Source: a virus
Taxonomy: Duplodnaviria > Heunggongvirae > Uroviricota > Caudoviricetes
IMG/VR virus record: IMGVR_UViG_2648501669_000010
Span: 1-4,852 of that record
Strand: one strand, 5' to 3'
DNA: 4,852 nt
Part shown: positions 50-4,852 of the stretch, piece by piece
How the letters are laid out: every line of letters begins with the position of its first letter
How positions within the stretch are numbered: position 1 is the first letter of the stretch
Position numbers and translations under genes: made by a program
Notes under the pieces: model-generated
The model's input: the letters and a program-made list of their open reading frames with translations, nothing else
The model's database searches: none
What the model was told of the DNA's origin: nothing

Positions 50-571
50 ATGACCACTATTACCAGAGAAAGCGCGGAGATTAAATCATTCATCACTGGT
101 TTCCTGAGCGATCCGGCGCACGATAACCAATCTTCAAACAGCCTGCTTACTAATGTGTTTCGTATCGCACTGGCGTCACTGGAAGCAGAGCCAGTGGCGT
201 GGAAGGCAACCTTCACGCAAATTGACAATGAATATAATACGTTCACTGCTCTGTATTCTGACAAAGCAGAAGTCGAACGGTGGGTGCGATTGCATGAAAT
301 AGGTGACTTTCGGGCAGAAATAACACCGCTTTACGCAGCGCCGTCAGCGCCGGTAATTCCGGATGGTTGGATAAGCTGTAGTGAGCGGATGCCAGAGGAC
401 GGTCAGCACGTAATTATTTTATGTGATGGCGCATTCGTTCTTTATGCGCAATATCGAGACGGTGAGTTTTTTGATGTCGTCCGCAATGGTGAGGAGTTCT
501 TCGAAACGCAGAGCCGCAATGTAACCGACTGGATGCCTCTACCAGAACCGCCGCAGGAGGTGAGTCGATGA
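50..571 (+). CDS. DUF551-domain phage protein (accessory early-region protein of unknown function)
   Basis: 173-aa ORF with ATG at 50 preceded by a purine-rich SD (aaggaaag, 37-44). The C-terminal part (DGWISCSERMPEDG...VTDWMPLPEPP) matches my recollection of the DUF551 signature common in lambdoid prophage nin/early regions. Family assignment is from memory, not a search. Confidence 0.65.
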   Translation: MTTITRESAEIKSFITGFLSDPAHDNQSSNSLLTNVFRIALASLEAEPVAWKATFTQIDNEYNTFTALYSDKAEVERWVRLHEIGDFRAEITPLYAAPSAPVIPDGWISCSERMPEDGQHVIILCDGAFVLYAQYRDGEFFDVVRNGEEFFETQSRNVTDWMPLPEPPQEVSR

Positions 572-614
572 CCTGGCCTGAAGCATTCACAACAATTGCT
601 GCGGGTGCTTGAGG

Positions 615-650
615 CTATCTGCCTCAGGCATGAACACCAACGGCAGATAG
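615..650. repeat. Perfect 9-bp inverted repeat (ctatctgcc / ggcagatag) with 18-nt spacer, between the DUF551 gene and mok
   Basis: Read directly: 615-623 ctatctgcc and 642-650 ggcagatag are exact reverse complements. No T-tract follows on either strand, so this is not an intrinsic terminator. It could be an RNA stem-loop in the hok leader or a dimeric protein-binding site. Confidence 0.5.
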
Positions 651-714
651 AGAAAAGCCCCAGTTAACATTACGCGTCCTGCAAGACGCTTAACATTAAT
701 CTGAGGCTCAATCT

Positions 715-927
715 ATGAACGGCAAATCTAGGTTAGCCTCTTACGTGCCGAAAGGCAAGGAGAAGCAGGCTATGAAGCAGCAAAAGGCGATGTTAGTCGC
801 CCTGATCGTCATCTGTTTAACCGTCATAGTGACGGCACTGGTAACGAGGAAAGACCTCTGTGAGGTACGAATCCGAACCGGCCAGACGGAGGTCGCTGTC
901 TTCACAGCTTACGAACCTGAGGAGTAA
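715..927 (+). CDS. mok: Mok-like reading frame (N-terminally extended form of Hok, modulator of killing)
   Basis: 70-aa ORF in the same frame as hok, starting 57 nt upstream. This is the same architecture as chromosomal mokC/hokC, where Mok is an N-terminal extension of Hok. The extension KGKEKQAMKQQK resembles the MokC extension as I recall it. GAGG at 703-706 sits upstream of ATG 715. Confidence 0.5.
   Translation: MNGKSRLASYVPKGKEKQAMKQQKAMLVALIVICLTVIVTALVTRKDLCEVRIRTGQTEVAVFTAYEPEE
772..927 (+). CDS. hokD: Hok/Gef-family type I toxin (small membrane-depolarising peptide), HokD/RelF-like
   Basis: 51-aa product MKQQKAMLVALIVICLTVIVTALVTRKDLCEVRIRTGQTEVAVFTAYEPEE: one hydrophobic transmembrane helix followed by the conserved Hok periplasmic tail (RKxLCEVRIRTGQTEVAVFTAYE). 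It is almost identical to E. coli HokD/RelF as I recall it. Strong SD AGGAG at 758-762, about 9 nt before ATG 772. Confidence 0.85.
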   Translation: MKQQKAMLVALIVICLTVIVTALVTRKDLCEVRIRTGQTEVAVFTAYEPEE

Positions 928-1094: not shown

Positions 1095-1367
1095 ATGGCG
1101 CACAAAACCAAATTTCACAAATCTGATACCGACCTTACCATCCGGCACGGGCGGCGTTCACGCGCATTTAAAACCGACTGGTTCCAGCATGACCCCTGCA
1201 CTGAAGAACAGGCCGAATGGCTGATTCAGAACTACCGCAGACGTGGCTATGAGTTTCAGAAAGACCTCAGTCTTGACTTCCGACACTGGATAATTTCCGT
1301 CAGGCTCCCCTATTCCGAACGCCCACCACGCCCGTCCCGCACATTCCAGCAACGCATCTGGAGGTAA
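1095..1367 (+). CDS. Small basic prophage protein, Rem-like (unknown function)
   Basis: 90-aa ORF rich in Arg/His (predicted basic). Its stop TAA (1365-1367) sits inside the GGAGG...GTG start context of the next gene, indicating translational coupling. Its position between hok and the DUF968 gene mirrors the hokD-rem-ydfU order I recall from the E. coli K-12 Qin prophage. The sequence-level assignment to Rem is from memory and tentative. Confidence 0.5.
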   Translation: MAHKTKFHKSDTDLTIRHGRRSRAFKTDWFQHDPCTEEQAEWLIQNYRRRGYEFQKDLSLDFRHWIISVRLPYSERPPRPSRTFQQRIWR

Positions 1368-1368
1368 C

Positions 1369-2418
1369 GTGCGGGTATTACTTCGACCTGTTCCGGTACC
1401 GGAACTCGGGCTGGTGGTCCTTAAGCCGGGGCGTGAATCCATGCAGGTATTTCATAACCCTCGAGTGCTGGTGGAGCCTGAACCGAAAAGCATGCGCGGG
1501 CTGCCGTCCGGAGTCGTTCCCGCCGTTCGCCAGCCGCTGGCGGAAGACAAATCATTACTGCCATTTTTCAGCGACGAACGGGTGATTCGTGCTGCTGGCG
1601 GTGCTGGAGCACTGTCTGACTGGCTCCTGCGTCATGTTAAATCCTGCCAGTGGCCTCATGGTGATTACCATCACAGCGAAACCGTCATACATCGTTACGG
1701 TACTGGCGCGATGGTGTTGTGCTGGCACTGCGACAACCAGTTGCGTGACCAGACCTCCCAATCACTTGAGCAACTTGCTCACCAAAACCTGTCAGCATGG
1801 ATGATTGACGTCATCCGTCACGCAATGAATGGCACACAGGAGCGGGAATTATCGCTGGCTGAATTATCCTGGTGGGCGGTCTGCAATCAGATGGTGGACG
1901 CACTACCTGAGGCAGTATCGCGTCGTTCACTGGGATTGCCAGCGGAAAAAATCCGCTCGGTGTACCGCGAAAGCGACATCATACCGGGAGAGCAGACAGC
2001 CACCAGCATACTGAAGCAGTGCACAAAAAATATTGCGCTACCACCTCACGCCCACCAGCAACAGAACCCACCACAGGAAAAGACGGTGGTCAGCATTGCC
2101 GTTGATCCGGATTCTCCTGAATCTTTCATGAAGCGACCTAAACGTCGCCGTTGGGTAAATGAGAAATATACGCGCTGGGTGAAGACACAGCCGTGTGCGT
2201 GTTGTGGTAAGCCAGCCGACGATCCCCATCACCTGATTGGTCATGGTCAGGGCGGAATGGGGACAAAAGCCCACGATATTTTCACGTTGCCGCTGTGTCG
2301 GGAACATCACAACGAGCTTCATGCTGATCCGCTGGCGTTCGAAGAAAAGCATGGTTCTCAGGTTGATTTGATTTTTCGTTTTCTTGAACACGCCTTTGCA
2401 ACTGGTGTGCTCGGATAA
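1369..2418 (+). CDS. DUF968-domain protein (YdfU-like) with C-terminal HNH-like zinc-finger/nuclease motif
   Basis: 349-aa ORF starting at GTG 1369 with GGAGG at 1360-1364. The C-terminus carries CACCGKPADDPHHLIGHGQGG...LCREHHNELH, i.e. a CxxC...HH...CxxHH...H arrangement typical of HNH-type metal-binding nuclease folds. Length and position match YdfU of the Qin prophage as I recall it. An alternative start at ATG 1441 is possible. Confidence 0.75.
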   Translation: MRVLLRPVPVPELGLVVLKPGRESMQVFHNPRVLVEPEPKSMRGLPSGVVPAVRQPLAEDKSLLPFFSDERVIRAAGGAGALSDWLLRHVKSCQWPHGDYHHSETVIHRYGTGAMVLCWHCDNQLRDQTSQSLEQLAHQNLSAWMIDVIRHAMNGTQERELSLAELSWWAVCNQMVDALPEAVSRRSLGLPAEKIRSVYRESDIIPGEQTATSILKQCTKNIALPPHAHQQQNPPQEKTVVSIAVDPDSPESFMKRPKRRRWVNEKYTRWVKTQPCACCGKPADDPHHLIGHGQGGMGTKAHDIFTLPLCREHHNELHADPLAFEEKHGSQVDLIFRFLEHAFATGVLG

Positions 2419-2430
2419 AAGAGGTTACTG

Positions 2431-2790
2431 ATGGGGATTGAATTTGTTTTGCCTTACCCGCCGACGGTGAACACCTACTGGCGACGTCGTGGCAGTACAT
2501 ATTTTGTATCAAAAGCCGGTGAGTGTTATCGCCGGGATGTGGCGCTAATTGTTCGCCAGCAGCGACTGAAATTAAACCTGTCCGGAAGGCTGGCAATAAA
2601 AATTACTGCGGAGCCACCGGATAAGCGCCGTCGTGACCTAGACAATATCCTGAAGGCACCGCTGGATGCGCTGACGCATGCTGGACTACTTATAGACGAC
2701 GAGCAGTTTGATGAAATCAATATAGTGCGCGGTTTGCCTGTTCCTGGTGGGCGGCTGGACGTGAAGATTTACAAAATTGAAAGTGAGTGA
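2431..2790 (+). CDS. rusA: Crossover junction endodeoxyribonuclease RusA (Holliday junction resolvase)
   Basis: 119-aa product with clear RusA-family motifs (LPYPPTVNTYW, PDKRRRDLDNILKAPLDALT, GGRLDV), the right length of about 120 aa, and SD AGAGG at 2420-2424 before ATG 2431. It sits in the canonical lambdoid position immediately upstream of Q. Confidence 0.9.
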   Translation: MGIEFVLPYPPTVNTYWRRRGSTYFVSKAGECYRRDVALIVRQQRLKLNLSGRLAIKITAEPPDKRRRDLDNILKAPLDALTHAGLLIDDEQFDEINIVRGLPVPGGRLDVKIYKIESE

Positions 2791-3359
2791 GCGTAAATAT
2801 GATATACCCGGAAATTACAGGCAAAAGCGGTGAGCATTTACGCCTGAAAACGCTGGAAAGTGTCTGGCTCCAGGGAAAACTGCGTATGTGGGGGCGTTGG
2901 TCGTATATTGGCGGCGGTAAGACGGGAAATATGTTCAACCAATTACTGACCTCTAAAAAGCTGACAAAAACGGCAATTAACGAGGCGCTCCGGAGGATGA
3001 AAAAAGCGGGTCTGGACAAACCTGAACTTGAGGCTTTTTTGCGGGATATGATCAACGGCAATCAAAAAAGCTGGCTGGCACATTGTACCGATTCAGAGGC
3101 GTTAATAATCGACAGGGTTATTGGTGAAGCCCTGGCAGGTTATCCCGGGCTGCTCAATGTCCTGAGTCAGCGTTATGTGGGGCGGGGGATGACTAAGCGC
3201 AAAATGGCTGAACTGCTGAATGATGCACACCCGGAATGGAGTTTAAGAACCTGTGAAAGACGCATTGAGCATTGGCTAAAGGTGGCAGAATTTATTTTGT
3301 ACAAACCAATGGTTATGGCTTTTGGTATAGAGAAAAAAAGTTATTGCTTTTTGACGTAA
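2787..3359 (+). CDS. Late-gene antitermination protein Q (phage 82 / QuuD-type family)
   Basis: 190-aa ORF whose GTG start overlaps the rusA stop (gTGA at 2787-2790); an alternative start is ATG 2799. The N-terminal region (LESVWLQGKLRMWGRWSY...NQLLTSKK) resembles the LERWGAW...GLITSK motif I recall in QuuD/phage-82-type Q proteins. Synteny supports it: rusA upstream and an intrinsic terminator just downstream, as expected for Q - PR' - tR'. Confidence 0.7.
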   Translation: MSVNMIYPEITGKSGEHLRLKTLESVWLQGKLRMWGRWSYIGGGKTGNMFNQLLTSKKLTKTAINEALRRMKKAGLDKPELEAFLRDMINGNQKSWLAHCTDSEALIIDRVIGEALAGYPGLLNVLSQRYVGRGMTKRKMAELLNDAHPEWSLRTCERRIEHWLKVAEFILYKPMVMAFGIEKKSYCFLT

Positions 3360-3431
3360 AAACTGCTTCAATTCCGGTACGCTTCGCAAAGCTGTACCGC
3401 GAGGCGAATAGCAGACATGGACATTTGAAAG

Positions 3432-3456
3432 AGCCCGCTTTTTGCGGGTTTTTTTT
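3432..3456 (+). terminator. Rho-independent terminator downstream of Q (candidate tR'-like late terminator)
   Basis: Hairpin cccgc(3434-3438)-ttttt-gcggg(3444-3448) followed by an 8-T tract (3449-3456), about 75 nt after the Q stop codon. In lambdoid phages the late promoter PR' and its Q-antiterminated terminator lie in this position. Confidence 0.7.
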
Positions 3457-3578
3457 ATGCCTGAAAAACGGCACAGAACATTAAACGCGCTAGTGGTTCC
3501 GAATACCGGTCTTTCAGCTTGCTGGCTTTTTCGACAAGAGGTATTGGTATGTCACGTTAACCAGAAAAGGGAAAAGAC

Positions 3579-3776
3579 ATGCTAAAACAGCAGGATATGA
3601 CTGAAACCGCCAGAGTGGTGTTTAATGAATTAAGCGTCACCGAACCGGCGACCGTCGGGGAAATTGCGCAGAATACGTACCTTTCACGCGAACGCTGTCA
3701 GTTAATACTGACCCAGCTTGTTATGGCGGGTCTGGCAGATCATCAGTTCGGTTGTTACAGACGCCTTCCGCAGTGA
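3579..3776 (+). CDS. Small (65 aa) putative winged-helix/HTH DNA-binding protein, hypothetical
   Basis: ORF with a purine-rich upstream stretch (aaagggaaaag) before ATG 3579. The segment PATVGEIAQNTYLSRERCQLILTQLVMAGL has the spacing and hydrophobic pattern of a helix-turn-helix recognition unit. No family is recognised from memory. Codon pattern looks coding, but the call rests on ORF plus motif only. Confidence 0.45.
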   Translation: MLKQQDMTETARVVFNELSVTEPATVGEIAQNTYLSRERCQLILTQLVMAGLADHQFGCYRRLPQ

Positions 3777-3831
3777 AGGCTTTTTAATTTGTGGTAATGG
3801 GCGGCTGGTGGGTGTTAGCGGCACCTGCCAG

Positions 3832-3880
3832 CCATCTGCTCATGCGTTGGGGTCACAAGCAAACCTCAGGCCCATCTGCT
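3832..3880. repeat. Two copies of 9-bp direct repeat ccatctgct (3832-3840 and 3872-3880), 40 bp apart, in the spacer upstream of the methyltransferase gene
   Basis: Read directly from the sequence. Both copies are followed within a few bases by tgcg. A 40-bp spacing is about four helical turns. This could be chance (rough expectation of a few percent in a 150-bp spacer) or paired binding sites. Confidence 0.35.
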
Positions 3881-3926
3881 TTGCGCAAAAGCGGTATGAG
3901 CCTATCAGAGAAGTGCTTATTGATCT

Positions 3927-4852
3927 ATGGTTAATACTGTAAAAATATCCAGTTGTGAGTTAATCAACGCTGATTGCCTGGAATTTATCCAGACCTTGCC
4001 GGAAAACTCTGTCGATCTGATAGTCACAGACCCGCCATACTTTAAAGTGAAGCCCGAAGGCTGGGATAACCAGTGGAAGGGCGACGATGATTACCTGAAA
4101 TGGCTGGATCAGTGTCTGGCGCAATTCTGGCGGGTACTGAAACCTGCCGGAAGTCTCTACCTGTTCTGTGGTCATCGCCTGGCATCTGATATCGAAATCA
4201 TGATGCGTCAGCGCTTTAATGTGCTGAACCACATTATCTGGGCGAAGCCGTCCGGACGCTGGAACGGATGCAACAAGGAAAGCCTGCGGGCGTATTTCCC
4301 GGCAACAGAACGCATTCTGTTTGCGGAACATTATCAGGGGCCATACCAGCCCAAAAATGACGGCTATGCGGCAAAGGGGCGCGAGCTAAAACAGCACGTC
4401 ATGGCCCCGCTGATTTCTTACTTTCGTGATGCGCGTGAATCACTGGGGGTAACATCGAAACAGATAGCGGAAGCCACCGGAAAGAAAAACATGGCGTCAC
4501 ACTGGTTTGGTACCAGTCAGTGGCAGTTGCCGAACGAGGGTGATTACAGAAAACTGCAGGTGTTATTTGCACGTGTAGCGGCAGAAAAGCATCAGCGCGG
4601 AGAACTGGAAAAACCACATCACCAGCTGGTCAGCGCATACAGTGAACTGAACCGGCAATATGCCAGTCTGCTGGATGAATACAAATCACTGCGGCGTTAT
4701 TTTTCCGTATCAGCTGCAGTGCCGTATACGGATGTCTGGACGCACAAGCCCGTGCAGTATTATCCGGGCAAACATCCCTGCGAAAAACCGGCGGATATGT
4801 TGCGGCAGATAATAGAGGCCAGCAGTCACCCTGGTGATTTGGTTGCGGATTT
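3927..4852 (+). CDS. DNA methyltransferase, beta-class (N6-adenine or N4-cytosine), 3'-truncated by window end
   Basis: Open frame from ATG 3927 to the window end with no stop (308 codons); the six-frame track omits it only because it is unterminated. The N-terminus NADCLEFIQTLPENSVDLIVTDPPY carries the catalytic motif IV (DPPY) of amino-methyltransferases, followed by a conserved-looking core (LKPAGSLYLFCG). Motif IV lying N-terminal to the AdoMet-binding motif I (expected beyond 4852) defines the beta-class arrangement. A weak SD before ATG 3927 makes the exact start uncertain. Confidence 0.85.
   Translation, partial: MVNTVKISSCELINADCLEFIQTLPENSVDLIVTDPPYFKVKPEGWDNQWKGDDDYLKWLDQCLAQFWRVLKPAGSLYLFCGHRLASDIEIMMRQRFNVLNHIIWAKPSGRWNGCNKESLRAYFPATERILFAEHYQGPYQPKNDGYAAKGRELKQHVMAPLISYFRDARESLGVTSKQIAEATGKKNMASHWFGTSQWQLPNEGDYRKLQVLFARVAAEKHQRGELEKPHHQLVSAYSELNRQYASLLDEYKSLRRYFSVSAAVPYTDVWTHKPVQYYPGKHPCEKPADMLRQIIEASSHPGDLVAD

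Follow-up and report, generated by a model that had tools for sequence, protein, structure and literature searches.

An M.EcoGII-family adenine methylase gene of a lambdoid prophage, preceded by a structured leader RNA that may limit its translation

Described relatives and the identity of the methylase

[quoted passage not shown] 2018, PMC5778455). Many restriction enzymes are blocked by its methylation, and the authors proposed an anti-restriction role (PMC5778455). Lysogens express neither enzyme, and over-expression of M.EcoGII slows growth (PMC5778455); lysogen silence and toxicity of such a methylase function have also been reported in PMC12707154. The authors place both in 'a very large family' found in E. 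coli prophages, phage 1720a-02 included (PMC5778455). All six reconstructed ancestors of M.EcoGII, reaching back toward the split from M.PflMI, act as methylases on DNA and RNA; with RNA, no sequence motif emerged for M.EcoGII, Anc291 or SUPREM (PMC11551740). [quoted passage not shown] The nearest site-specific relative, M.PflMI, recognizes CCANNNNNTGG and is 27% identical to M.EcoGII (PMC11551740); its predicted fold is similar, TRD included, but it lacks the charged interdomain linker, which the protein described here has. The mom/com genes of phage Mu likewise provide a phage DNA-modification function that is late, silent in the lysogen and toxic if mis-expressed (PMC12707154), although Mom has no homology to the present methylase and is not an AdoMet methylase of the beta class.

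The stretch of 4,852 nucleotides analysed here (the window) ends within a gene of this family. Its protein aligns with M.EcoGII over 308/308 residues with one gap at 86% identity; the reference was Table S1 of PMC11551740, machine-read from the PDF with a few reading errors, so that the true identity may be slightly higher and the 42 substitutions or gaps at 308 positions are partly errors of the reference. Identity to Anc291, a resurrected ancestor of M.EcoGII, is 88%, and within the TRD the two proteins do not differ at residues 163-189. With M.PflMI merely 27% identical to M.EcoGII, these values place the window allele well inside a clade whose tested members show no sequence preference. 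[quoted passage not shown] Like the window gene, M.EcoGII is prophage-borne and stand-alone, with the beta-class order of motifs, an HTH-type TRD and a charged linker; the window gene is a different allele, however, whose activity is predicted and whose C-terminal 40 residues lie beyond the window. Anc291, SUPREM and the other ancestors are synthetic reconstructions, whereas this is a natural allele within the sequence space that they span. By its sequence, the gene is an ordinary prophage-borne member of a family characterised before, that of M.EcoGII, and the methylase itself is already known. Adenine methylation in any context would be carried over to this allele from the published M.EcoGII. 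We consider it very likely that positions 3927-4852 encode residues 1-308 of an M.EcoGII-family enzyme, a stand-alone N6-adenine methyltransferase of the beta class carried by lambdoid prophages of Enterobacterales, with a late, Q-dependent, protective function and a leader that probably limits its translation. The features of the window are collected in Table 1.

Table 1. Features located in the window, with the evidence for each
Feature	Position	Strand	Basis
DUF551 gene	50-571	+	
hok/mok toxin gene with sok antisense RNA	603-927	+	Rfam sok, 108.7 bits at 603-777
Small PHROG-1212 ORF	1095-1367	+	
DUF968 gene	1369-2418	+	
rusA	2431-2790	+	
Q-like late antiterminator gene, 190 aa	2787-3359	+	DUF1133 E 5e-105; Phage_antitermQ E 9.6e-07; PHROG 753 'anti-termination protein Q-like' E 9.8e-80
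tR'-like intrinsic terminator 3' of Q-like gene, GCCCGC/GCGGGU hairpin and U run	3427-3457	+	RNA fold
Small winged-helix-like ORF, 65 aa	3579-3776	+	Pfam TrmB E 0.0018, below cut-off; PHROG 331 (unknown function) E 8e-37
Terminator-like hairpin over small-ORF stop codon, GCCTTC-CGCAGT-GAAGGC and T-rich tail	3763-3790	+	Terminator scan
Structured 5' leader RNA of methylase gene, about 130 nt	3798-3926	+	Conservation, covariance model, covariation
Leader P1	3798-3802/3870-3874	+	
Leader P2	3803-3814/3822-3833	+	
Leader P3	3837-3840/3858-3861	+	
Leader P4 hairpin	3878-3882/3888-3892	+	
Methylase gene, first 308 of about 348 codons, cut by window end	3927-4852	+	Frame translation, Pfam, M.EcoGII identity
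Motif IV DPPY (catalytic), residues 35-38	4029-4040	+	Translation; alignment to solved beta-class enzymes
Target-recognition domain, residues 150-240, helical bundle with Xre-type HTH	4374-4646	+	Predicted structure
HTH helices of TRD, about residues 177-193	4455-4505	+	Predicted structure
Motif X region, GKHPCEKPADMLRQII...PGDLVAD, directly 5' of motif I	4767-4850	+	Alignment to RsrI 222-248, 8urk 211-238

On translation, the frame stays open from the ATG at 3927 to the window end, for 308 codons and two bases without a stop, and an in-frame TGA at 3921-3923, two codons 5' of this ATG, excludes an earlier start. The protein matches positions 1-187 of the 221 in the Pfam profile N6_N4_Mtase (PF01555) at E 4e-29, scoring 102.6 bits where the cut-off is 26.7. 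The closest solved cores, the M.BceJIV-type enzyme (PDB 8urk/9c3u; E 1e-17) and M.RsrI (1eg2/1nw8; E 1e-15), align to motifs IV-VIII (residues 8-115) and to motif X (residues 281-308); the DPPY of the window protein falls on motif IV of both and is invariant among 55 homologues. The last residues, ...PGDLVAD, are followed by 'tt', two bases into the F codon of motif I, where the four closest relatives read on as FFMGSGST (motif I, FxGxG) and reach a stop about 40 residues later. The best database relatives (E 1e-207, 96% identity) are 348-352 aa long. The order of motifs, from an N-terminal DPPY through the TRD and motif X to motif I as read from relatives, is that by which the methylase is assigned to the beta class. 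Since the last ~40 residues, motif I included, lie beyond the window, we infer the intactness of this copy from relatives with 95-96% DNA identity. The preliminary description, which had seen a beta-class methyltransferase with an N-terminal DPPY, cut short by the window end, and had proposed the Pfam search, was right on these counts.

Similar DNA is present in 2408/5426 complete E. coli genomes, nearly half of them, and about 500 genomes match the 4.85-kb window over 80% or more of its length, the best nucleotide match to the window being 95-96%. Homologues at 65-97% identity occur across Enterobacterales. The methylase gene is of interest chiefly for annotation: as M.EcoGII and M.EcoGI have been demonstrated to act without sequence specificity, database names such as 'site-specific DNA-methyltransferase' mislead when given to this family. 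In practice, M.EcoGII is sold as a reagent for chromatin footprinting and serves in RNA m6A tools. Natural alleles near the more active Anc291, that of the window included, are candidate variants.

The central segment and its recognition domain

The solved beta-class enzymes (8urk/9c3u, RsrI, CcrM and MboIIA) align only to residues 8-115 and 281-308 of the window protein. About 165 central residues have no counterpart in these chains, which indicates that the central segment is a real separate region and, in comparison with 8urk/9c3u and RsrI, that the TRD is a different domain. An AlphaFold2 model of the whole 308-residue fragment with 55 close homologues had a pLDDT of 56 and was not used for fold searches; residues 150-240 modelled alone, with 103 sequences at 52-96% identity, gave a pLDDT of 76 and a pTM of 0.63. 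A Foldseek search with this model returned weak E-values, and the Pfam matches to HTH_3 (residues 167-190) and Pou (156-188) were both below threshold. In the predicted structure, the HTH segment folds as an Xre-type HTH domain and sits between the catalytic and AdoMet-binding halves. A charged linker is present at residues about 215-260, and the window protein therefore combines the HTH-containing helical-bundle TRD and the charged linker that mark the M.EcoGII family. The peptide GVTSKQIAEATGKKNMASHWFG, quoted earlier as part of an inserted HTH-like or target-recognition segment, corresponds to residues 174-195. The HTH fold of that proposal is upheld by the prediction (Xre-type), but the notion of an insertion is not: the segment is the TRD itself, already described for M.EcoGII (PMC11551740).

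Late position, neighbouring genes and competing readings

The window represents the nin/late-regulatory region of a lambdoid prophage, with all genes on the + strand. As the preliminary description had placed it, the methylase gene lies just 3' of a Q/terminator module, consisting of the Q-like gene and the hairpin at about 3427-3457 (z -4.5). The RNA fold of 3360-3470 has an energy of -42.5 kcal/mol (z -4.53); the consensus terminator scan missed the hairpin in it. The hairpin over the stop codon of the small ORF has a different stem in other genera, with complementarity kept and, in some, long T runs. The position of the methylase behind the Q-like gene and two terminator hairpins fits antitermination-dependent late expression, as judged from gene order, and it also fits the reported lysogen silence. 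In such a scheme, the gene would be read only after induction, once Q-modified RNA polymerase passes both hairpins. Progeny DNA would then be broadly adenine-methylated and, in the next host, protected from restriction systems sensitive to adenine methylation.

Several further observations were made in this region. The stretch 3360-3460, between the Q-like gene and the small ORF, is highly structured (z -4.5) and has a strong terminator at its end; it may, by analogy, correspond to a short pR' transcript such as lambda 6S or StxS. An isrK-like match at 3381-3454 was sub-threshold (19.8 bits against 50, E 0.059). A simple promoter scan of 3200-4000 returned no sigma-70 site, so that pR' has no assigned location. 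The Q-like gene starts with a GTG that shares bases with the stop codon of rusA (GTGA, 2787-2790), an overlap suggestive of translational coupling. The nin region contains a complete hok/mok/sok type I toxin-antitoxin module (Hok Pfam E 1.8e-23, ORF 715-927), and sok is the sole Rfam match at gathering level in the window.

The same arrangement is found in described Shiga toxin phages. Over the small ORF, leader and methylase, nucleotide identity is 93% to phiP27 (an Stx2e phage, gene L24) and 86% to the methylase module of phage 1720a-02. In both, as in the window, Q, small ORF and methylase follow in this order; in the two phages, tRNAs and/or stx come next: tRNA-Ile, tRNA-Arg, stx2e and holins in phiP27, stx2 in 1720a-02. 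The window differs from both in its DUF1133-type antiterminator and in the upstream nin region (DUF551, hok/sok, DUF968, rusA). Among E. coli, Salmonella and Klebsiella loci, the module stands behind three Q families (PF06530, PF06323 and DUF1133) and is followed by holins, tRNAs or TerB-like cargo. At 77 species-level loci, the commonest ORFs 3' of the methylase were three holin families, phage lysozyme and, in Xenorhabdus, a Tad2-like protein, and the seven largest downstream ORF clusters gave no nuclease-family match. An ORF and Pfam scan found no nuclease gene in the window, including the 3.9 kb 5' of the methylase, and none was seen 3' of the gene in annotated or ORF-scanned relatives. 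The adjacent cognate endonuclease gene of a type II restriction-modification (R-M) system is therefore missing from the window and from the 3' side in relatives, and the orphan status first described from the window is supported; like M.EcoGII the gene is prophage-borne without a cognate nuclease, within a lambdoid nin/Q context seen in the window and in its relatives.

In Xenorhabdus/Photorhabdus loci (L168, about 3570-4550, and about nine further ORFs of the same cluster), the gene after the methylase encodes a protein of 327 aa whose Tad2-like domain (Thoeris anti-defence) matches at E 8.5e-17. The pairing suggests an anti-defence gene cluster in these genomes.

The small ORF has weak winged-helix matches (TrmB/MarR-like). 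It lies ~150 nt 5' of the methylase at constant spacing in most E. coli, Salmonella and Klebsiella loci. In about one third of species-level loci it is absent and unrelated genes stand in its place, so it is not an obligatory partner.

The enzyme might instead be an orphan methylase that is sequence-specific and plays a regulatory part, epigenetic or of the cell-cycle type, like Dam, CcrM or YhdJ, its HTH reading a defined DNA motif. The Xre-type fold predicted for the TRD reads specific operators in repressors and C proteins, M.PflMI is site-specific despite its similar predicted TRD, and the window protein differs from M.EcoGII at 15/80 residues between positions 161 and 240 (~19% of TRD positions). 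Nevertheless, the protein is 86-88% identical to two active enzymes without detected sequence preference; DNA and RNA methylation was seen with all six ancestors leading back toward the split from M.PflMI; and the linker missing in M.PflMI is present here. Moreover, the window protein scores far below the cut-offs of the equivalog models for YhdJ (NCBIfam NF008572; 88.3 bits against 292) and CcrM (NCBIfam NF050803; 43.2 bits against 830). Sequence-specific recognition of this kind thus appears quite unlikely.

Two other readings concern what lies past the window. As the window stops inside the gene and its own downstream neighbour falls outside, the gene could be the modification half of an ordinary type II R-M system with its nuclease just beyond the end. 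Yet in the relatives with downstream DNA read, the gene is followed by tRNAs, stx, holins, lysozyme or by TerB-like or Tad2-like genes, none of the seven largest downstream ORF clusters scanned matches a nuclease family, the 3.9 kb upstream holds no nuclease, and a non-specific methylase is no usual cognate partner for a site-specific nuclease; we regard this as exceedingly improbable. The gene could also be a decayed prophage remnant, inactivated past the window or never expressed, with no function in the host. The 308 codons are intact, however, all catalytic-half residues invariant in 55 homologues are kept, and the leader, upstream ORF, Q-like gene and rusA are likewise intact; lysogen silence is the state expected of a late gene, and decay seems highly improbable. 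A late, protective methylase of the M.EcoGII family remains the preferred reading.

The leader RNA

The leader is the sole fresh element of the locus. Between the end of the small ORF and the start codon of the methylase lies a spacer of 150 nt that is conserved above the flanking coding DNA in E. coli, Salmonella and Klebsiella. Its 1-nt indels argue that it is not coding, and a spacer-encoded peptide (ORFs 3718-3942 and 3791-3934) was rejected on account of these indels and of RNA-typical covariation. Rfam 15 contains no match for positions 3777-3926 even at E<=10, and no description of the leader was found in the literature covered by our incomplete search. With a covariance model based on 52 sequences, each locus yields a single strong copy, always on the strand of the gene and ending at its start codon, and the leader is present at 60 loci from about 30 named genera. 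In viral contigs the leader sequence pattern has 121 matches, of which 119 are followed by a methylase start and 111 are preceded by the small ORF. Of the remaining two, one locus ends too soon; the other (L191) is an exception to the leader-gene linkage in appearance only, the gene being internally deleted. There (IMGVR_UViG_2671180727_000005, 2145-2700), the leader is fused after ...GAGCCTATC to the final ~60 methylase codons, which gives a dead methylase copy with the leader and the downstream tRNAs retained.

Comparison of relatives supports a three-way junction of P1-P3 together with P4 and a tail hairpin (fold A); the tail up to the AUG is conserved, and its hairpin is the weaker one. 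In the model-based alignment of 60 sequences, 98% of cells are paired in fold A, compared with 29-44% in slid controls. Compensatory double changes occur at 13/26 pairs against 4.5 in shuffles, 0/500 of which reach 13; all such counts were taken over sequences that are related, are biased in favour of the fitted structure and are not tree-aware. An independent MAFFT alignment gave the same picture for P1-P3. The clearest covarying pair, 3837 with 3861 (CG 28, UA 13, AU 11, UG 6), was recovered also by an unbiased scan of all column pairs. An initial RNAalifold structure from 8 sequences was revised once 52-60 sequences gave P1 and P3, and it was retained as the alternative fold.

The minimum-energy fold of the window's own leader sequence (fold B) differs from fold A. 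It comprises the pairings AUGGGC/GCUCAU, GGCCCAU/AUGAGCC, AAGC/GCUU and GGUCA (3851-3855)/UGAUC (3921-3925), the last of these segments directly adjoining the AUG. Across the 60 sequences, fold B is 89% paired and has compensatory changes of its own. Folds A and B exclude each other and differ little in energy (means of -54.0 against -49.0 kcal/mol), with a preference that varies among relatives: the window's own leader favours the closed fold by ~10 kcal/mol, whereas some relatives favour the open one.

Translation of mom is gated by mRNA structure near its start, which is opened by the small Com protein, and our gating hypothesis is modelled on this arrangement. Fold A would leave the AUG region open, whereas fold B would pair GGUCA with the UGAUC abutting the AUG and so gate translation of a toxic enzyme. 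The two-fold leader would thus probably limit translation of the methylase, confining it to a short window or to a trigger, for which a ligand, a protein or co-transcriptional kinetics would be candidates. Judged from structure alone, the leader may have a regulatory role. We propose tentatively, and at somewhat under an even chance, that it represents a bistable class of cis-regulatory RNA not yet described, dedicated to M.EcoGII-family genes and restricting translation of the toxic methylase. Such an RNA would offer a concrete handle on the silencing and release of a toxic enzyme, the mechanism of which is not explained in the literature examined.

The small ORF was considered as a Com-like activator acting on the leader. 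This candidate is weakened by the third or so of species-level loci that keep leader and methylase behind unrelated upstream genes; unlike in mom/com, the small upstream ORF is not obligatory here. The Xenorhabdus/Photorhabdus loci have a shorter, different spacer where the leader would stand.
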